IMG/VR virus record: IMGVR_UViG_3300035698_008634 | DNA length: 13,566 nucleotides | Source of the DNA: a virus | Strand: one strand, 5' to 3' | Shown: positions 1-7,859 of the stretch, one piece after another | Layout: each line of letters opens with the position of its first letter | Numbering within the stretch: position 1 is the stretch's first letter | Position numbers and translations under genes: made by a program | The notes under the pieces: model-generated | What the model was told of the DNA's origin: nothing | What the model saw: only the letters and a program-made list of their open reading frames with translations | Database searches by the model: none

Positions 1-465
1 CAATATAATCTTTCCATTTTGTAAGTTTTGCATAACGATTATTTATAGAAAAACATAATGTATCTATTTTACCTAATATAATTTCATTTTCAATTGGCAA
101 TTGATGATCCAACCCGTCATAATCAATCTTACAAATTATCATATCGGTTGAATTATCAAAATTCTGTACAATAGTTTCTAAATAATTTGGATATAGAACA
201 TTATCATCGTCTAAATAAATTAAATATTTTCCTTTTGATATATTGTTTGTTAAATAGTTTCTTTGACTAGATCCTCCATCATTTTTCATATCAATATAAT
301 AATACTTGATATTTTCTTTTCTGAAACTATCTATTATATTTTTTACATTTTCATCGTGACCATCCGAACATATTAACATTTCCCAATTTGTATAAGTTTG
401 ATTAAGTACAGAATTAATTGCTCTTGTTAATTCTTGTGGTCGTTTATATGTTGGTGTTATAATAC
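1..465 (-). other. Family-2 glycosyltransferase domain (C-terminal domain of the minus-strand protein, truncated by the window edge).
   Basis: LISIITPTYKRPQELTRAINSVLNQTYTNWEMLICSDGHDENVKNIIDSFRKENIKYYYIDMKNDGGSSQRNYLTNNISKGKYLIYLDDDNVLYPNYLETI matches the GT2 consensus (ITPTYNR...L.S...QTY...E.I..DDGS...DADD). Confidence 0.7.
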
Positions 466-2824
466 TTATTAATGGATTTATATCATCACGATAATCTTCT
501 GGTGGGATTGGGATGTAATAAAGACCCAAATTTTTTGGTGAATAAAAATTATAAAAGTTATTAGGGGTTGAATTTATCCATTTTTCACACTTAATGCGAA
601 TCCACAATTTGACATCATAGGGTTCTTTTTCTTTTTCAAAAGTTGGATATTCTAATTTTTGAATATGATTTGAATTTGACCACCAAAAATTACCGGTATA
701 AATTGGAACTTCTGGATTATAATTGTATAAAGAACCAACAGTATCATACCCTTCATTTAATTTATCAACACAATCGTACCATCTTTCGATATTGAAATAT
801 TCTAAACATTCTCTCCATTTTTTTATGGACTCTAAATTTCTCATTGTCTCATTAGGATCATATTCATCGTTGTTGTTTATTTGCAAATTATGTTCACTCC
901 ATACACCTTTTAAATGAAAATATAAAATATATGATTCCTCGATATTTTGACAAAAATCCCACAAATGTTGTAATGTGTAATATTCATAGAAATTATTTTC
1001 AAATCTTTTTATTATTATTTTTTGATCAACATCATAATCTTTAATAATTTGTGTGAACAACATCCATTGTTCATCATCTCCAAAGGAATTCAAAAATATC
1101 AAACTAGAATTATTATACAAACCAGAAGATTTTAATTTATTTAATTGATGGGTTAATATTTCTAACCAATTATTAATTAAATAATTGTGACCAAAAATAT
1201 ATATGTTTTTTTTCTTTTCTTTTCTAAAAACGAAATGATTAGATTGTTCTATTAATTTATAATCATTATCAACCATATAAGGTAATAAAAATTTTCCATT
1301 ATTTAAATTTTGTTCAATCGTATCATTTATGGTAATATATTTGTAATAATTTATTTTATCATCTTTTATTACTTGTGAATATGGGATATTTTTTTCATTT
1401 TTCATAAAATATTCCAATAATTCTAATTGTTTTATTTTTAGTTGTTCTAAATCTGTTTCATTTATATTTAAATCTATATTTAATTTTTCATTATCTATAA
1501 CATTAATAGAATGAATATATCTTTTGACATAATCTTGAAATAGAAGTTTACTATAAGTATTATAATGTTCGCCTGCTCTATGTTCTAAATTCCAATCACT
1601 TAAACGTTCATATTTTTTTCTAGATTTTTCTGTAAGAATTTCATATGATAACCATTTATATTGCAATAATTTTATTTCTTCTTTTTCACTCCATTTGACA
1701 TTTCCTTTTGGTTCACATTTATGACATCCCATATGATAATTTATATCAATTACTGGGTTGAAAATAGCATTTTTATTTAAATATTCTGAATCTTTAGTGC
1801 CCCTTTTTATGATTTGGGGTAAATATTTTCCTTTTTCAAATATTGGATATTCCATTGATATCATATCAAAACCTTCGATTAATGGAATAGTAATACCATT
1901 TTCTTTATATTTTTTTAATTTTTCTTTTAAATTTGGATGATACAAAAATTCATCCATATCACAAACTATCATCCAATCATAATCATTTCTATATTTCTTC
2001 CATTTTTCATTCCATATACTAACCGCCCATCTGGTATCTGTTTTTTCGTTTATTTCAACAATTAATTCGGCCACAGGACATTGACGGATAATTTCTTGTG
2101 TCCCATCATTAGAACCCCCATCGAAAAATAAAATTTTATCAACACCAACAAAATTAACATAATAATCTATCCAAAATGGAATAATTTCAATTTCATTATA
2201 ACACATAGTTGATACACAAATTTTCATATCTTTCTTTTCAAATTTTTCTTTTTCAACATACCAAGACCAAGTGTCCTTTTTGACAATTTCTATATTTTTA
2301 TCAAAGAATTCGTTTACTGCCCTGACAACACCCGGCCAGTCACCTTGATTATAATCATGACCACCTATCACACCATTATCTTTGACTTTAGGATACCAAT
2401 CTTGAATATCTCTTTTTACCGATTCATAATCATGTGCACCATCAATAAAAACAAAATCTAATGATTTATCCTTATAATTTTGAACAACATCGAAAGACCA
2501 TCCATGAACAGGATTTATATAATCTTTAATAGGATTTATATTATCTAAAAAATCATCGTATAAAGTTTTATCTAAACTTTTTATGATATCATCATGTAAA
2601 GACTGATCATTTCCACCACCTTTTGATCCTTCCCAAGTGTCTATCGCGTCAAATTTTATTTTTTTCCCTGAATTTAATATTTCAACCCCCATATATGATG
2701 TAGATTTTCCCATCCAAGAACCAATTTCAACAAAATGAGAACCATCAGGAAATTTCTCAACCATTTGTTTATAAATTGATTCGAAATCAAACCAACCATC
2801 TATATTCTGATAAAAATGATCCAT
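1..2824 (-). CDS. Large multidomain glycan-modifying protein, 3' end of the gene lies beyond the window start. Domains: N-terminal class I SAM-dependent methyltransferase, GT-A-like glycosyltransferase, an unclassified middle region, and a C-terminal family-2 glycosyltransferase.
   Basis: I reverse-complemented and translated the full 2824 nt; the frame stays open from ATG at 2824-2822, with an in-frame TAA immediately upstream, to position 1 (at least 941 aa). It is absent from the ORF track because no stop falls inside the window. N-terminus MDHFYQNIDGWFDFESIYKQMVEKFPDGSHFVEIGSWMGKSTSYMGVEILNSGKKIKFDAIDTWEGS...LDFVFIDGAHDYESVKRDIQDWYPKVKDNGVIGGHDYNQ is a Methyltransf_24/TylF-MycF-like class I methyltransferase (glycine-rich SAM motif VEIGSWMG, acidic FIDGAHDY, GHDY). 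The second domain ICVSTMCYNEIEIIPFWIDYY...ILFFDGGSNDGTQEII...YDWMIVCDMDEFLYHP carries a DXD motif in a GT-A context. The C-terminal domain LISIITPTYKRPQELTRAINSVLNQTYTNWEMLICSDGHDENV...YLIYLDDDNVLYPNYL is a textbook GT2 N-terminus with a DXD motif. Confidence 0.85.
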   Translation of the reverse strand, partial: MDHFYQNIDGWFDFESIYKQMVEKFPDGSHFVEIGSWMGKSTSYMGVEILNSGKKIKFDAIDTWEGSKGGGNDQSLHDDIIKSLDKTLYDDFLDNINPIKDYINPVHGWSFDVVQNYKDKSLDFVFIDGAHDYESVKRDIQDWYPKVKDNGVIGGHDYNQGDWPGVVRAVNEFFDKNIEIVKKDTWSWYVEKEKFEKKDMKICVSTMCYNEIEIIPFWIDYYVNFVGVDKILFFDGGSNDGTQEIIRQCPVAELIVEINEKTDTRWAVSIWNEKWKKYRNDYDWMIVCDMDEFLYHPNLKEKLKKYKENGITIPLIEGFDMISMEYPIFEKGKYLPQIIKRGTKDSEYLNKNAIFNPVIDINYHMGCHKCEPKGNVKWSEKEEIKLLQYKWLSYEILTEKSRKKYERLSDWNLEHRAGEHYNTYSKLLFQDYVKRYIHSINVIDNEKLNIDLNINETDLEQLKIKQLELLEYFMKNEKNIPYSQVIKDDKINYYKYITINDTIEQNLNNGKFLLPYMVDNDYKLIEQSNHFVFRKEKKKNIYIFGHNYLINNWLEILTHQLNKLKSSGLYNNSSLIFLNSFGDDEQWMLFTQIIKDYDVDQKIIIKRFENNFYEYYTLQHLWDFCQNIEESYILYFHLKGVWSEHNLQINNNDEYDPNETMRNLESIKKWRECLEYFNIERWYDCVDKLNEGYDTVGSLYNYNPEVPIYTGNFWWSNSNHIQKLEYPTFEKEKEPYDVKLWIRIKCEKWINSTPNNFYNFYSPKNLGLYYIPIPPEDYRDDINPLISIITPTYKRPQELTRAINSVLNQTYTNWEMLICSDGHDENVKNIIDSFRKENIKYYYIDMKNDGGSSQRNYLTNNISKGKYLIYLDDDNVLYPNYLETIVQNFDNSTDMIICKIDYDGLDHQLPIENEIILGKIDTLCFSINNRYAKLTKWKDYI
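1690..2220 (-). other. GT-A-like glycosyltransferase domain (second domain of the minus-strand protein).
   Basis: ICVSTMCYNEIEIIPFWIDYYVNFVGVDKILFFDGGSNDGTQEIIRQCP ... RNDYDWMIVCDMDEFLYHPNLKE. Nucleotide-sugar transferase-like layout with a DXD motif (CDMDE). Family uncertain (GT2, GT92-like or DUF23-like). Confidence 0.55.
2281..2824 (-). other. Methyltransferase domain (about aa 1-185) of the minus-strand multidomain protein. Paralogous to the stand-alone methyltransferase at 7856..8734.
   Basis: HFVEIGSWMGKSTSYMGVEILNSGKKIKFDAIDTWEGS aligns with [66 protein letters not shown] aligns with [28 protein letters not shown]. About 50% identity by eye. Confidence 0.75.
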
Positions 2825-2924
2825 ATATTAATCTTTTTTTTAATGTATTGAATTAAACATCCATTGTTTTATTTTTAAACATTCTTTTAATTATTTTTTA
2901 TATAGAAAAAAATAGGTGATCGAA
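2825..2924. promoter_or_regulatory. Divergent intergenic region between the minus-strand multidomain gene and the + strand gene array. Presumed bidirectional promoter region.
   Basis: About 100 nt of AT-rich non-coding DNA separates two divergently oriented starts (2824 minus, 2925 plus). It contains tatataga at 2899-2906, and GGTGA at 2915-2919 sits 5 nt before ATG 2925 (Shine-Dalgarno-like). Confidence 0.35.
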
Positions 2925-3368
2925 ATGTTACATTTTAAAGAATTGAATTATCTGAATATTATAAAATTGTATTACTTTCTGGTGAGAAACAAAAACGATT
3001 TTAATTTATTTCATCCACACGAATATAATATGAATTCTTTATTCAGAAATATTCACAACAAAAAAGATTTTTTTGTTTGTTTATTTTATAAAAATAAAAT
3101 TGTTGGTTATGGTATGCTAAGAGGATGGAAGGAAGGATATGATATACCCTCTTTAGGGATAATGATAGATAAAGATTATAGAGGAATGGGTTTATCAAAA
3201 ATTTTGATGGAATATTTACACATAATTTGTAAATTTAAGAAATGTGATCGTGTTATGTTGAAAGTTGCAAAAAATAATGAAAGTGCCATAAATTTATATA
3301 AAAAATTAGAATATGAACTTGATAATTATAATGAAGTATTTATGATTGGGTACAAAAAAATAAAATAA
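2925..3368 (+). CDS. GNAT-family N-acetyltransferase, probably a sugar N-acetyltransferase.
   Basis: The ORF track starts at GTG 2916; the in-frame ATG at 2925 (MLHFKELNY...), preceded by GGTGA, is preferred. Acetyl-CoA binding motif A region VGYGMLRGWKEGYDIPSLGIMIDKDYRGMGLSKILMEYL (R-G-x-G-x-S) is followed by a C-terminal AINLYKKLEY, the typical GNAT beta-alpha C-terminus. About 147 aa, a normal GNAT size. Confidence 0.75.
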   Translation: MLHFKELNYLNIIKLYYFLVRNKNDFNLFHPHEYNMNSLFRNIHNKKDFFVCLFYKNKIVGYGMLRGWKEGYDIPSLGIMIDKDYRGMGLSKILMEYLHIICKFKKCDRVMLKVAKNNESAINLYKKLEYELDNYNEVFMIGYKKIK

Positions 3369-3370
3369 AT

Positions 3371-4405
3371 ATGAATAAAAATTGTATAATCATAACATCT
3401 TATCCATCAACTGAATATAAACTAAATGTTTTGAAAAAATCTTTGAATTCTATAAAGATTTTGAAAGATAAATTTGATATCGTTTTGTGTTCACAATATC
3501 CCGTCACGGATAAAGAAATTCTTTCCTCTGTTGATTATTTTTTATATGATAATGATGATATTGAAAGTTTTTATAATTACGGTGATGTACATACCTACGA
3601 TTTTCATTGGCGATTTGGTATAGATAATATACAATTTACGGATATTTTTGATAATACATATCATTTTATGTTATGGAAATTAATATACATGGGATTGAAT
3701 TTCTCAGATTCTATGGGGTATGATTTTTTCTACTATATGGAAGGTGATTTTGAAATATTGTCAGAAAATTTTTCGGATAAAATTATAAAATTGAAACAAA
3801 ATATGATTGAAAAAGAAAAAGAAATTATTTTGTTTAATTTGCAACACGATAAAGATGAAGATATAGATTTTTTTCTGGGTGTTTTATGGGGTGGTAAAAT
3901 TAAAAGATTCTTGAAAAATGATATTCCCATTAATAAAGAAGATTGGGTAAATGATAATTTTTATACATCTCACCCACTTGAATATATAATGTATCAAAAA
4001 ATTTATCAAAAATCAAAAGATAAAATTGACAAAATTTATTTTGAAGATGGATTATCTATTCTAAGAGATGATGAAATTATTTTAAATAAATTACATTGTT
4101 TAAGTGGATTGAAAACTTTATTTTATTTTGATAAAACACAACCAGAAATATTGTATGTTTTTTTGAATAACAATCAACCAAATAAAAAAACAATAAAAAT
4201 TTATTTTGATGATCTTCTATTTTTGGATAAGGTTTTTAACCCCAATGAATATTATTCGAATGTTGTGTCCATAAAAGATGTCCTGAATAAACAAGTGAAA
4301 TGGACTATATATGATGATGATGTGATATTTTTTGAGAAATCTTTTTATTTGGATGAAAATAGACTTGAAAATGTTAAAAGAAAGGGGTTAATATTATATA
4401 TTTAA
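3371..4405 (+). CDS. Hypothetical protein, 344 aa. Possible GT-A-fold glycosyltransferase.
   Basis: Long ATG-initiated ORF that starts 2 nt after the GNAT stop. Its N-terminus NCIIITSYPSTEYKLNVLKKSLNSIKILKDKFDIVLCSQ resembles the first beta-alpha-beta of nucleotide-diphospho-sugar transferases, and several acidic DxD-like motifs are present (YDNDD, YDDDV). I recognise no firm family. Confidence 0.6.
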   Translation: MNKNCIIITSYPSTEYKLNVLKKSLNSIKILKDKFDIVLCSQYPVTDKEILSSVDYFLYDNDDIESFYNYGDVHTYDFHWRFGIDNIQFTDIFDNTYHFMLWKLIYMGLNFSDSMGYDFFYYMEGDFEILSENFSDKIIKLKQNMIEKEKEIILFNLQHDKDEDIDFFLGVLWGGKIKRFLKNDIPINKEDWVNDNFYTSHPLEYIMYQKIYQKSKDKIDKIYFEDGLSILRDDEIILNKLHCLSGLKTLFYFDKTQPEILYVFLNNNQPNKKTIKIYFDDLLFLDKVFNPNEYYSNVVSIKDVLNKQVKWTIYDDDVIFFEKSFYLDENRLENVKRKGLILYI

Positions 4406-4449
4406 AACATTTACCTCATTCTTTTTTATAAATAAAAACAATAAATAAA

Positions 4450-4752
4450 ATGGCTGATACATTAGGTGGTTTAATTGATAAATTATTAACCGTTGATTTA
4501 AAAATGTGGAATAATCAAGAGACATTATATCAAATAAGAAAAATGACTTTTGATGAATATAAGACGAAATATTTCGACACTGAAGATGGTGCGAAAATTT
4601 TATGGGAACAATTAAAAAAAGCAACAGATCTTAATTTTCAAAGGAATCAATTAATTGATGAAATCGATGATTTAATTGTCACTATGATTGAGAAAGGTGC
4701 CGATAAAGAAAGTTTGGAACCTTTTATCCAACGAAAACATAAGACATATTAA
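4450..4752 (+). CDS. Hypothetical small acidic protein, 100 aa.
   Basis: ATG-initiated ORF that fills the gap between neighbouring genes on the same strand. Predicted helical (LIDKLLTVDLKMWNNQETLYQIRKM...). No family recognised. Confidence 0.5.
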   Translation: MADTLGGLIDKLLTVDLKMWNNQETLYQIRKMTFDEYKTKYFDTEDGAKILWEQLKKATDLNFQRNQLIDEIDDLIVTMIEKGADKESLEPFIQRKHKTY

Positions 4753-4786
4753 AACTTGGACTTGGATGAAAAAATGATAAATTTTA

Positions 4787-5866
4787 ATGATACCGATATA
4801 TAAACCATATTTGCCTGATCACGTAACAAAATATGCACACGACGCAATAGATTCGACATGGATATCAAGTAGTGGTGATTATTTAAATAAAACAACAAAT
4901 AAAATAAAAGAGTTATTTGGATATAAATATGTTCTATTAACAAATAATGGCACAACAGCCTGTCATCTAATGTCAATTGGGTTGAAATATAAATATCCAA
5001 ATATAGAGGAAATTATAGTTCCCAACAACGTATATGTTGCTGGTTGGAACGCGTTTAAAATGAATCCCGTATACAAATTCACACCAATCGATTCTGATAT
5101 AAATACTTGGAATTGTGATTATAATTCGATTGATCCAAAAGGTGAGTATACATTTCTAATAATTCATAATATAAATTCTATAATAAATGTTCCATTGTTA
5201 AAAGAAAAATATCCAAATAGTATAATTTTAGAAGATAACTGTGAAGGGTTTTTGGGGAAATATAATGGAAAATATACAGGTACAGAATCTCTAATATCAA
5301 CAGTCTCTTTTTTTGGAAATAAAAATATAACATCTGGTGAAGGGGGTGCGGTCATGTTTTCTGATCCTGATCTTTTTGATTATTTAAATTCTGTTAGGTG
5401 TCAAGGTTGTACAGATAAGAAGTTTATATTTGATAAATTGGGGTATAATTATAGAATGACTAATGTTCAGGCAGCTCTTATTTATGGTCAATTGTTGAAT
5501 TTGGAAGAAATAATTGAGAGAAAACAGAATATTATCGATTCATATAATAAACATTTAAATCACGAAAAAATAGTTTTTCAAGAAACTGATAAAAATACTG
5601 ATAGATCAAATTGGATGTGTGGGGTGAGATTTGAAGGTTTTGAAGAAATAGATTTGAAGAAATTGGAATTGATATTGTTTGAAAACGGTATAGAGACAAG
5701 AAGAATGTTTCCACCAATTAATTATCACAAACATTATGAAAAAGAGGTTAGTATAAATGATAATTCTAAAATCATATATGATTCGAGTTTAATTCTTCCT
5801 AGTTATCCAGAATTAAATGAATATCAGATAAGTAAAATATGTGATATTATAAAAAAACAATTATAA
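4787..5866 (+). CDS. DegT/DnrJ/EryC1/StrS-family PLP-dependent sugar aminotransferase. Candidate GDP-4-keto-6-deoxy-D-mannose 4-aminotransferase (GDP-perosamine synthase-like).
   Basis: The N-terminus MIPIYKPYLPDHVTKYAHDAIDSTWISSSGDY...KELFGYKYVLLTNNGTTACHLMSIGL matches the family pattern (IP...P.L...E..A...VL.SGW...G....FE..FA...G.KYA..V.SGT.AL.LAL). SFFGNKNITSGEGGAVMFSD contains the catalytic Schiff-base lysine (SFxxxKxxxxGEGG). YNYRMTNVQAALIYGQL matches the family's NYRM...AA.G..QL motif. 359 aa, the usual size. Confidence 0.85.
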   Translation: MIPIYKPYLPDHVTKYAHDAIDSTWISSSGDYLNKTTNKIKELFGYKYVLLTNNGTTACHLMSIGLKYKYPNIEEIIVPNNVYVAGWNAFKMNPVYKFTPIDSDINTWNCDYNSIDPKGEYTFLIIHNINSIINVPLLKEKYPNSIILEDNCEGFLGKYNGKYTGTESLISTVSFFGNKNITSGEGGAVMFSDPDLFDYLNSVRCQGCTDKKFIFDKLGYNYRMTNVQAALIYGQLLNLEEIIERKQNIIDSYNKHLNHEKIVFQETDKNTDRSNWMCGVRFEGFEEIDLKKLELILFENGIETRRMFPPINYHKHYEKEVSINDNSKIIYDSSLILPSYPELNEYQISKICDIIKKQL

Positions 5867-5937
5867 AATGATATCATGTAGATAAATAAAACAAATCTCT
5901 GTTTTAGATATAAATAAGAAAAAAACAATCAATTAAG

Positions 5938-6237
5938 ATGGAAACAGAAAAAATTAAGAATGGACTTCCAGATATTAAAGTTTTGGAAATAAACAAGGAA
6001 TATTTGATAATAGATAAGCTCAAAAATAAAACAACTAGAGAGGTGCAAAAAATCAAATTAGTAAGAGAATCGAAAACCTCTTTTCTTATATCATTTAAAC
6101 CTGATAACCTTTTCGGTATTGTAATTGATGAGGATGAATGGTTGTTAAAACATGAATTTTTTGAAAGATATCAAATAGTTGAAGAATTGAATGCCGGGAA
6201 TTATGTTGTGACTGATACAAATGTTGTTGATATGTAA
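5938..6237 (+). CDS. Hypothetical protein, 99 aa.
   Basis: ATG ORF. Its stop overlaps the next start as TAATG (6235-6239). No family recognised. Confidence 0.45.
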   Translation: METEKIKNGLPDIKVLEINKEYLIIDKLKNKTTREVQKIKLVRESKTSFLISFKPDNLFGIVIDEDEWLLKHEFFERYQIVEELNAGNYVVTDTNVVDM

Positions 6238-6557
6238 TGAAACCACTAAAAAATGAATTAACGGTTGTTGGTACAATAACATCGAAACAAATCAGAGATT
6301 GTTTGGTTGATTTGGCCAGACAACCATTTGGTTGTTGTGTTAGATATAAAGATGGGACATTTCATCAGGTTACAATAGATTCAAATGATGAAATAAAAAT
6401 AGAAGATTATGATCCTTGGTTTGAATGTGAAAATGAAAACGAATTGAAAAAATACATAGAAACAAACAATGAGGAATTTTATAATTTTGTAAGATGGCAA
6501 GAGTTACAGAACATATTTGATGATGAGGAAATAAATGATGACATTTTTGAAAAATAA
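6237..6557 (+). CDS. Hypothetical acidic protein, 106 aa.
   Basis: ATG ORF translationally coupled to the upstream ORF through a TAATG overlap. Glu/Asp-rich C-terminus. No family recognised. Confidence 0.45.
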   Translation: MKPLKNELTVVGTITSKQIRDCLVDLARQPFGCCVRYKDGTFHQVTIDSNDEIKIEDYDPWFECENENELKKYIETNNEEFYNFVRWQELQNIFDDEEINDDIFEK

Positions 6558-6720
6558 ATATAGTATGGATAAAAATTTTACACCATATTGGGATATTGTA
6601 GAGAAGAAATCAGAATTTATCCCTTTTATAAAATTATCATCATTACCAAAAAAGGTAAGAGTGGGTTTCGGGGGAGGATATTTCTCACGAAGAATTAAAA
6701 AACAAGAATCAGATGAATGA
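6535..6720 (+). CDS. Small hypothetical ORF, 61 aa, uncertain.
   Basis: ATG ORF that overlaps the previous ORF by 23 nt. Its stop overlaps the GMD start as ATGA (6717-6720). Basic, Gly-rich tail ([15 protein letters not shown]). It may be real or may only fill the gap. Confidence 0.3.
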
Positions 6721-7859
6721 AGAAAGCATTAATTACAGGAATAACAGGACAAGATGGGAGTTATCTCGCAGATTTACTGTTAGAAAAAGGTTATGAAGTA
6801 CATGGAATAATCAGACGTTCTAGTTCTTTTAACACACAAAGATTGGAACATATTTATCATAATCCAAACTTAAAATTACATTACGGGGATGTTACTGATA
6901 GTATATCTTTAGATAGCATCATAAGTAAATTAAAACCAGAAGAAATTTATAATTTATCTGCACAATCACATGTTGCTGTTAGTTTTGAAATTCCCGAATA
7001 TACTGGTCAGGTTGATGCACTCGGTGTACTGAAATTATTGGAAATTGTTAAAAAACATTGTCCCACAGCAAAAATTTATCAAGCTTCAACAAGTGAATTG
7101 TTTGGTAAAGTTCAAGAAGTTCCCCAAAAAGAAACTACACCATTCTATCCACGTAGTCCTTATGGTGTTGCAAAACTATACGCATATTGGATATGTAGAA
7201 ATTATAGAGAGTCATATGGTCTTTTTATATCAAATGGTATATTATTTAATCACGAATCAGAAAGAAGGGGTGAAACGTTTGTCACAAGAAAGATAACAAA
7301 GGGGTTGACGAATTGGTATAAGACAGGTGAACCAATTAAACTTGGTAATTTAGATGCACGAAGAGATTGGGGATACGCGAAAGAGTATGTTGAGGTTATG
7401 TATTTGATGTTACAACAGGATGAACCTGATGATTTTGTAATATCGACAGGAGAAGCACATTCTAACAGAGAATTTGTAGAAGAAGCATTCCAATATATGA
7501 ATCATGGAAAACTAACATGGGTGGGTGAAGGTTTAGATGAAAAGGGTGTTGATGAAAAAGGGAATGATGTTGTGTTAACAGATCCCAGATATTTGAGACC
7601 ATCTGATGTGGAATTGTTAGTGGGAGATTCTACTAAAATAAAAGAAATGTTGGGTTGGGAAGCGAAAGTTAAATTTAAAGAGTTGGTTAAAATTATGATG
7701 TTACATGATCTGGGTGATATTGTTAAAAACAATGAAGAAAATAAATCATGTGATGATTATAGAGAAACCATGTTTAATGCATGGAAAAATAAAGAAGGAG
7801 ATAAATTTGAAGAGTTGGTTAAAGGGTGGATAAAAAAAGAGAAAGAGGAAAATAAATGA
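6717..7859 (+). CDS. gmd: GDP-mannose 4,6-dehydratase (EC 4.2.1.47).
   Basis: The N-terminus [48 protein letters not shown] is the near-invariant GMD Rossmann/TGxxGxxG signature. The catalytic SDR triad region is conserved (STSELFG ... [22 protein letters not shown] with YxxxK), followed by [18 protein letters not shown]. It carries a C-terminal Lys/Glu-rich extension of about 45 aa and a 15-nt tandem duplication at 7536-7565. Confidence 0.95.

Follow-up and report, generated by a model that had tools for sequence, protein, structure and literature searches.

The stretch of DNA considered here, 13,566 nucleotides of the virus record IMGVR_UViG_3300035698_008634 in IMG/VR (the window), holds at its left end part of a very long open reading frame (ORF) in which a methyltransferase domain is followed by several glycosyltransferase (GT) domains. 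This gene, called the megaenzyme gene below, has a new architecture made from known domain families and is carried by a huge phage. Probably this phage is related to the record LR756501.1, and the gene product is a soluble enzyme whose modules assemble a glycan by the mechanism outlined below.

The megaenzyme gene and its boundaries

2..2824, minus strand: N-terminal 941 amino acids (aa) of the multidomain methyltransferase/glycosyltransferase ORF; the window edge cuts off the C-terminal part

The reading frame begins, by translation, with an ATG at 2824-2822, with a TAA two codons upstream, and continues for 941 codons without a stop until it exits the left edge of the window, where base 1 is the leftover of a partial codon. 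The coding strand has an A content of 0.41 and a T content of 0.33 (~75% A+T), and since in DNA of this composition a random codon would be a stop in about 10% of cases, the chance of 941 stop-free codons is ~1e-43. GC content in the ORF (21-28%) is like that of the remaining window, and the sign of the GC skew changes at ~2,800-2,900, where transcription diverges. The uninterrupted minus-strand ORF of at least 941 aa in the preliminary description of this DNA is therefore upheld.

It could be argued that such a long ORF is an artefact in which a chimeric assembly or a frameshift has fused separate genes, as its modules also exist separately elsewhere (for example, as stand-alone proteins of ~220 aa that correspond to its third module, DUF8361). 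This has next to no probability given that collinear, fused orthologues are encoded in independent ENA, Logan and JGI assemblies as well as in LR756501.1, that the frame has no internal stop, and that base composition is uniform throughout. The homologue P0004 shares 58% identity with the window ORF over aa 2-940; it is collinear with it, as are P0002 and P0003. The fusion is thus genuine, and the assembly error that had been named as a possible refutation is disfavoured.

Full-length homologues are 1,400-1,750 aa in length, so the window holds the N-terminal ~60% of a protein of ~1,500 aa; because these relatives are longer and have further modules, ~570 residues lie beyond the window. The C-terminal end of every full-length homologue is formed by a conserved domain of ~340 aa (P0002 aa 1177-1514, P0004 aa 1181-1523, P0001 aa ~1240-1577) with the motifs SHPNxKxSEDIT, CTNFDxVF, EGxHYKTIFFIT and WFSSANS, for which there was no sequence match in Pfam or the Protein Data Bank (PDB) and into which the window protein presumably continues. 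No transmembrane segments are predicted in the fragment or in the full-length homologues, and none of the homologues has a functional name in the sources consulted.

Modules of the encoded protein

2237..2824, minus strand: Module A, aa 1-196, Methyltransf_24 class I S-adenosylmethionine (SAM)-dependent (sugar O-)methyltransferase (Pfam, PDB, motifs)
1490..2227, minus strand: Module B, aa 200-445, GT-A glycosyltransferase PF13704, GT92-like in orthologues (Pfam, DXD motif, model)
1214..1489, minus strand: linker, aa 446-537 (~90 aa), between Modules B and C (homologue breakpoints, model)
479..1213, minus strand: Module C, aa 538-782, DUF8361 (PF27674), A064R-D2-type, GT-A fold without DXD (profile, model, homologue annotation)
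2..469, minus strand: Module D, aa 786-941, N-terminal two-thirds of a GT2 domain that continues beyond the edge (Pfam, PDB)

Module borders were placed from the breakpoints of BLAST and phmmer alignments across 107 homologues, which show the modules to be units that move independently of one another. Three domains score above the curated Pfam thresholds (Methyltransf_24, Glyco_tranf_2_4 and Glycos_transf_2), and the full-length AlphaFold model (predicted local distance difference test [pLDDT] 75.9, predicted template modelling score [pTM] 0.41) has four alpha/beta domains whose mutual arrangement is not fixed. All four segments distinguished in the preliminary description were recovered in this way, from Pfam matches, homologue breakpoints and predicted structure together, and the joining of an N-terminal sugar-type SAM methyltransferase to GT-A modules in one polypeptide is confirmed.

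Module A matches Methyltransf_24 (PF13578) over aa 32-158 with an E-value of 1.7e-20 (74.3 bits, cut-off 26.3) and has a SAM-binding loop, E33-IGSWMGKS-41, as well as the motif D128-G-A-H131-D132. Its best match in the PDB is 6g7d (E 2.9e-6), probably the mycobacterial sugar 1-O-methyltransferase MeT1. The assignment of this segment as a SAM methyltransferase stands, and the label 'TylF/MycF-like' attached to it is only loosely right since TylF (PF05711) appears as a sub-threshold match in the orthologues.

Module B was described as a GT-A domain with a CDMDE-type DXD motif, and this is borne out by a match to Glyco_tranf_2_4 (PF13704) over aa 210-299 (E 5e-16, 59.4 bits, cut-off 27.5) and by D289-M-D291, which lies within CDMDEF at aa 288-293. 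D291, E292 and F293 are invariant in an alignment of 20 homologues, the corresponding region of the orthologue P0001 matches GT92, and the model of this module has a pLDDT of 85-92. The linker that follows, modelled as one long helix with beta-hairpins, is kept in close orthologues only and is missing from proteins in which Module C follows Module B without a gap. Module D likewise proved to be the canonical GT2 domain running past the window edge that had been proposed: PF00535 matches aa 787-905 (E 2.2e-28, 99.7 bits, cut-off 23.3; profile positions 1-120 of 168), the DXD motif is D872-D-D874, and the chondroitin synthase 2z86 (K4CP) is matched in the PDB with an E-value of 4e-16.

Module C, a glycosyltransferase of the A064R-D2 type

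The third segment had been left unclassified as a conserved block at aa 520-740 with possibly another transferase fold. The block exists, and homologue breakpoints move its borders to aa 538-782; of the motifs quoted for it, YFHLKGV lies at aa 635-641 and GNFWW at aa 711-715. PF27674 is not in the Pfam and NCBIfam sets that were scanned, and its assignment comes from precomputed annotation of homologues over the Module C region. Conserved residues are H546, S567-G-L-Y570, Y635-x-H637-x-K639-G640, W670, D694-x-x-G697, G711-N-F-W-W715 and E747, so that the residue set of the family (F/I-x-H after beta1, SGLY, Y-x-H-x-K-G, D-x-x-G, GNFWW and E-x-W) is complete. A sequence search of the PDB with Module C returned no match, and scans of Module C and the window ORFans against PHROGs and NCBIfam gave nothing useful.

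The predicted structure of Module C (pLDDT 88.5, pTM 0.87, from a 53-sequence alignment) is a GT-A fold for which Foldseek ranks GtrB first in the PDB (E 6e-6). In the model the fold lacks the DXD metal site; Y-x-H-x-K-G stands after beta4, where GT-A enzymes have DXD. Among the viral predicted structures of BFVD, it matches Caudovirales proteins of small size (with a TM of 0.86 over the target), proteins of Klosneuvirus, Harvfovirus and cedratvirus, and the 638-aa protein M1IF74 (E 5.6e-15, TM 0.70).

A protein of 638 aa is also the size of A064R of the chlorovirus PBCV-1, to which the whole ORF had been likened. A064R consists of a beta-L-rhamnosyltransferase (D1), an alpha-L-rhamnosyltransferase (D2) and a 2-O-methyltransferase (D3), so that the order GT, GT, methyltransferase given for it earlier is correct (review PMC9614988). 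According to the same review, D2 transfers L-rhamnose in alpha-1,2 linkage with inversion and independently of cations, and is active as constructs 191-438 and 213-438. It is unlike any annotated glycosyltransferase, 'represents a new GT family' and adds a single residue, the domains of A064R acting sequentially on the capsid protein glycan. The A064R sequence was retrieved from IMG/VR with two PCR primers published for the CA-4B A064R homologue (PMC8530361), both of which lie on one 330,611-bp chlorovirus contig with the spacing of the published 835-bp amplicon and in an ORF of 638 aa.

A profile of Module C and its homologues matches A064R aa 218-438 with 163 bits (E 4.6e-52 as a single comparison, or E 8e-43 scaled to 1.8 billion sequences). 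Hhalign aligns Module C with A064R-D2 over 208 columns with a probability of 99.9% (E 4e-36), and BLASTP of the window protein against A064R aligns aa 551-729 with aa 230-384 (E 3.5e-8). A stand-alone DUF8361 member from a giant-virus metagenome-assembled genome (MAG) shares 35% identity with A064R-D2 (E 2.5e-37). The invariant residues are all common to Module C, A064R-D2 and this member; a protein search seeded with the latter returned no named chlorovirus protein. Because of the profile, BLASTP and hhalign matches and the common invariant residues, segment 3 is assigned as an A064R-D2-type glycosyltransferase, which bears out the suspected transferase fold and gives the protein three glycosyltransferase modules and one methyltransferase. 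Judged by sequence, the absence of DXD from Module C fits the cation independence reported for D2.

A GT-A fold could also belong to a sugar nucleotidyltransferase or another enzyme that is not a glycosyltransferase. For Module C this is highly improbable in view of its strong and specific homology to A064R-D2, for which transferase activity was shown in vitro and whose cation independence agrees with the absent DXD, and the N-terminal G-x-G-x-R/K loop of nucleotidyltransferases is absent from the Module C alignment.

The likeness to A064R does not extend over the whole protein. In a Pfam scan D1 of A064R is a GT34 domain (E 1.7e-10) and D3 a sub-threshold Methyltransf_24, and hhalign gives Modules A, B and D at most 3-5% probability against D1 and D3, which is likeness at the level of fold or motif only. 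The window protein is thus not a whole-protein orthologue of A064R, that is, a protein of ~640 aa with a GT34-like D1, a D2 and a C-terminal D3. What remains of the proposed resemblance is the homology of segment 3 to D2, and the different domain order that had been pointed out, with the methyltransferase first here, is correct.

Distribution of DUF8361 and of the fused architecture

At E <= 1e-3, DUF8361 was found in 6,665 cluster representatives (50% identity) among 1.84 billion, many of them with 2-4 copies per protein. There are at least 560 confirmed loci in IMG/VR and 109 in the 185,579 species genomes of GTDB, an apparent viral enrichment that is approximate because the search patterns for the two collections differed slightly. 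The GTDB loci are mainly from Prevotella/Segatella, planctomycetes, chlamydiae and actinobacteria; the domain is frequent in the human-gut Prevotella/Segatella copri group and occurs also in Acetobacteraceae, Thermoactinomycetaceae and myxobacteria (loci L092-L170). Lacipirellula parvula, the source of the best bacterial homologue of A064R-D2 (PMC9614988), is not among the 80 GTDB loci listed, where only an uncultured Pirellulales genome is present. No mention of DUF8361, PF27674 or the GNFWW motif was found in the literature.

In many proteins of ~435 aa, DUF8361 is joined to a domain of the Methyltransf_24/CmcI type ('rhamnosyl O-methyltransferase'). In a 323-kb jumbo phage (L072, 3503-7011) and a 217-kb T4-like phage (L009, 4314-8985), GT34, DUF8361 and a methyltransferase are adjacent as genes or domains. 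The combination of GT34, DUF8361 and methyltransferase, which is fused in A064R, suggests a functional triad that recurs in phages and chloroviruses. In a giant-virus MAG (L089, 4621-5994), the ORF beside a stand-alone DUF8361 gene looks, by eye only, like an ornithine/arginine decarboxylase and carries a (TNT)n low-complexity insert.

Full-length relatives of the window protein have a common GT2_4 - DUF8361 - GT2 core and vary in what is added to it: methyltransferase copies, whose position differs, a further GT2 at the N-terminus and a second DUF8361. The view that this kind of architecture is rare outside giant-virus glycosylation machinery does not hold, as dozens of metagenomic clusters have shuffled MT24, GT2_4, DUF8361 and GT2 domains, and sugar and GT clusters of jumbo phages have already been described.

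Genomic identity of the window

9456..9884, plus strand: u142 (142 aa), conserved ORFan of the glycan island (70% and 68% identity in LR756501.1 and the P0004 contigs)
10373..10894, plus strand: u173 (173 aa), conserved ORFan (homologues in the phage set only in 735-, 642- and 634-kb huge phages)
11023..13491, plus strand: vault-like protein, 822 aa (MVP_shoulder E 7e-26, Vault_3 E 3e-11)

In a comparison set of 50,697 phage records, homology and synteny with the window were found for LR756501.1, a 735,411-bp 'uncultured phage', and also for LR756500/02 and LR745206. LR756501.1 has a match to the window ORF (43% identity, 81% of the window ORF covered), an ORF of 1,755 aa that lies ~7 kb from a conserved block of genes. 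By local tblastn this block, which consists of genes for GDP-mannose 4,6-dehydratase (GMD, 74% identity), a methyltransferase (63%), u142 (70%) and u173 (52%), neighbours the megaenzyme gene of LR756501.1 and that of the ENA contigs encoding P0004. The vault-like protein is 67% identical to an ORF located elsewhere in LR756501.1 and 49% identical to one of the 462-kb phage LR756500.1. A 2023 preprint (10.1101/2023.11.10.566534) reports homologues of the major vault protein from gut Caudoviricetes; vaults are unmentioned in the paper on huge phages by Al-Shayeb et al. 2020 (PMC7162821), in which the largest genome, of 735 kb, is placed in the Mahaphage clade and its host is predicted to belong to the Bacteroidetes. 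We infer that LR756501.1 is this 735-kb Mahaphage genome.

The P0004 contigs (L001/L002, 22620-24572 and 17879-18430) also carry a methyltransferase split by a LAGLIDADG-endonuclease intein, and a NusG-like protein. No tRNA gene was found in the window.

The preliminary description placed the gene with the glycosylation machinery of giant viruses, and it might be supposed that the protein is a rearranged A064R of a chlorovirus or another nucleocytoplasmic large DNA virus (NCLDV) infecting a eukaryote. The homology of Module C to A064R-D2, the presence of DUF8361 in Klosneuvirus, Harvfovirus, cedratvirus and giant-virus MAG contigs, and the low GC content and many ORFans of the window are all in keeping with such an origin. 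The synteny of GMD, the methyltransferase and two ORFans with LR756501.1, which also holds the 1,755-aa relative and the vault-like protein, is not, and neither is the restriction of u173 to phages of 634-735 kb. Furthermore, the Mimivirus early promoter motif AAAATTGA is not enriched in the window (2 matches, 6.9 expected), and D1 and D3 of A064R are without a specific counterpart here. A giant-virus origin, already disfavoured, is thus left with a very small probability, and the taxonomic framing is corrected to that of a huge bacteriophage.

The divergent sugar operon

2825..2915, no strand: A/T-rich intergenic region between the megaenzyme gene and the divergent sugar operon (sign change of GC skew)
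2916..3368, plus strand: GNAT N-acetyltransferase (Acetyltransf_1 E 1e-15; translation more likely starts from an in-frame ATG at 2925)
3371..4405, plus strand: u344, a 344-aa protein with no family assigned
4787..5866, plus strand: DegT/DnrJ/EryC1 sugar aminotransferase (Pfam E 5e-54)
6717..7859, plus strand: GMD (TIGR01472, 505.6 bits, equivalog cut-off 415 bits)
7856..8734, plus strand: second, stand-alone Methyltransf_24 methyltransferase (Pfam E 1.8e-17; 63% identity in locus L011, syntenic with LR756501.1)
8646..9404, plus strand: 252-aa ORF as listed, from a TTG start; its first 89 nucleotides lie within the preceding methyltransferase gene
9940..10353, plus strand: 137-aa ORF with one strongly hydrophobic C-terminal segment, aa 115-137

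The operon at 2916-8734 on the plus strand comprises the genes for the GNAT enzyme, the 344-aa protein and the aminotransferase, three small ORFs, and the genes for GMD and the Methyltransf_24 enzyme. GMD, whose gene is syntenic with LR756501.1, carries out the first step to GDP-6-deoxyhexoses, and the closest solved relatives of the aminotransferase are the GDP-perosamine synthases 3bn1, 3dr4 and 3dr7 (E ~1e-35). GMD and a C4 aminotransferase together lead to GDP-perosamine, which a GNAT enzyme could N-acetylate. The operon therefore probably supplies a GDP-6-deoxyhexose donor, and N-acetylation of an amino sugar is the probable role of the GNAT enzyme.

No match to u344 was found in Pfam, NCBIfam, the PDB or the phage collection. 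Because of its 89-nucleotide overlap with the gene at 7856-8734, the real start of the 252-aa ORF is probably downstream of the listed one, and this ORF has no match in the phage collection. The 137-aa ORF, with no homologue in the fetched loci, encodes the only predicted membrane anchor in the window.

Proposed mechanism and nature of the product

The genes described above suggest a pathway in which the operon would make a derivative of GDP-4-amino-4,6-dideoxymannose (perosamine), probably N-acetylated. The DUF8361 module would transfer this derivative or another 6-deoxyhexose in a metal-free reaction, and Modules B and D, with their DXD motifs, would each add a further sugar with Mn2+ or Mg2+. 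The methyltransferase would O-methylate, and possibly cap, the product. As in A064R, the domains may act in turn on the same growing glycan. The acceptor could be a lipid-linked polysaccharide of the host envelope that is remodelled during infection, or a virion protein.

Several points weigh against this scheme and against the phage assignment to which it is tied. The activities, donors and acceptors of all modules are predictions, and the C-terminal ~570 residues, including a conserved domain without annotation, are outside the window. Module C is only ~25% identical to A064R-D2, so its sugar specificity may differ, and for A071R, another D2-like protein, the use of D-rhamnose is a prediction. 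The operon has no recognised reductase or nucleotidyltransferase, and the donor assignment is tentative because several of its ORFs are unannotated. Since the window contains no phage hallmark gene, its assignment to a phage comes entirely from homology and synteny to records deposited as phage.

Alternatively, the protein could be a polymerase which builds a long repeat-unit polysaccharide by alternating action of its GT modules, with the methyltransferase adding a chain-terminating cap in the manner of WbdD. Models for such an enzyme are the bifunctional chondroitin and heparosan synthases and the O-antigen enzymes WbdA and WbbB of ABC-transporter-dependent pathways. Matches to GT-A folds do not separate polymerases from single-addition enzymes, though, and A064R-D2, the only characterised relative of Module C, adds one residue. 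Genes for an ABC transporter, a polyprenyl-phosphate glycosyltransferase or a ligase were not found in the window, and polymerisation is regarded as possible but doubtful.

A tentative case can also be made for glycosylation of virion structural proteins (capsid or fibres) rather than the host envelope, as occurs in chloroviruses, mimiviruses and some mycobacteriophages. A064R acts on a capsid protein glycan, the enzyme has no transmembrane segment and the window no lipid-carrier enzyme or flippase, and in the jumbo-phage locus L072 DUF8361 is near a tail/tropism gene (Mtd_N). Sugar clusters of jumbo phages are, however, usually read as serving the remodelling of host-surface polysaccharides (PMC7824862), and no structural gene was identified beside the megaenzyme gene in the window.

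Implications

For the proposed assembly enzyme of a huge phage, the link to A064R-D2 means that DUF8361 can be annotated from A064R-D2 biochemistry, which would give a Pfam family a cation-independent glycosyltransferase function. In addition, a GT family described from a chlorovirus proves to be plentiful in phages, the largest known ones among them, and its members are frequently coupled to O-methyltransferases of the rhamnosyl type. The conserved glycan island of huge phages, with GMD, methyltransferases and a megaenzyme of shuffled GT and methyltransferase modules, offers defined constructs and candidate donors for the biochemistry of glycosylation in uncultivated phages.

A far broader proposal is that huge phages have a glycosylation system that is mostly their own, on a par with that of the giant viruses of eukaryotes, in which an assembly line of ~1,500 aa, fed with GDP-N-acetylperosamine or another GDP-6-deoxyhexose, would produce a methylated hetero-oligosaccharide for the virion, and that the A064R-D2 family is primarily a phage family from which NCLDV copies were acquired. 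Taken as a whole this is unlikely. If it were true, what has until now been regarded as an oddity of chloroviruses would be mainly a phage family, from which chloroviruses and other NCLDV had acquired their copies.

Comparison with known systems

The 1,755-aa ORF of LR756501.1 and the metagenomic homologues P0001-P0013 share the GT2_4 - DUF8361 - GT2 core with the window protein at 42-67% identity as well as the neighbourhood of GMD, methyltransferase and ORFans, and differ from it in the position and number of methyltransferases, the extra N-terminal GT2 and the second DUF8361. The stand-alone (~220 aa) and fused (~435 aa) DUF8361 proteins of phages, bacteria and NCLDV align with Module C from end to end, and a joined or adjoining methyltransferase of the Methyltransf_24/CmcI type recurs in the family; in the window protein, by contrast, Module C sits between two DXD glycosyltransferases in a megaenzyme of four or more modules.

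PBCV-1 A064R likewise has several glycosyltransferase domains and a sugar-acting SAM methyltransferase in one polypeptide, and Module C corresponds to the active D2 construct over ~220 residues, with neither having a DXD motif. A064R differs in having a GT34-like D1 in place of the PF13704 and GT2 modules with DXD, in its D3, which hhalign relates to Module A with a probability of 3%, and in its length of 638 aa as opposed to ~1,500 aa with extra modules. Moreover, the window protein is encoded by a huge bacteriophage genome, and the pathway next to it is based on GDP-mannose and not on UDP-L-rhamnose.

The bacterial polysaccharide enzymes K4CP (chondroitin polymerase), PmHS2 (heparosan synthase) and WbbB/WbdA-WbdD (O-antigen systems) are also soluble proteins with multiple GT-A domains, some with terminal methylation, and K4CP is the enzyme matched by Module D. 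Unlike the window protein, they are chromosomal and coupled to export machinery and have no module of the A064R-D2 type. The sugar-modification clusters of jumbo cyanophages (Iyer et al. 2021, PMC7824862) are phage islands with NDP-sugar dehydratases, aminotransferases, methyltransferases and several GT families, as is the island in the window, but they consist mostly of single-domain genes, and the link between DUF8361 and A064R-D2 is not described there.

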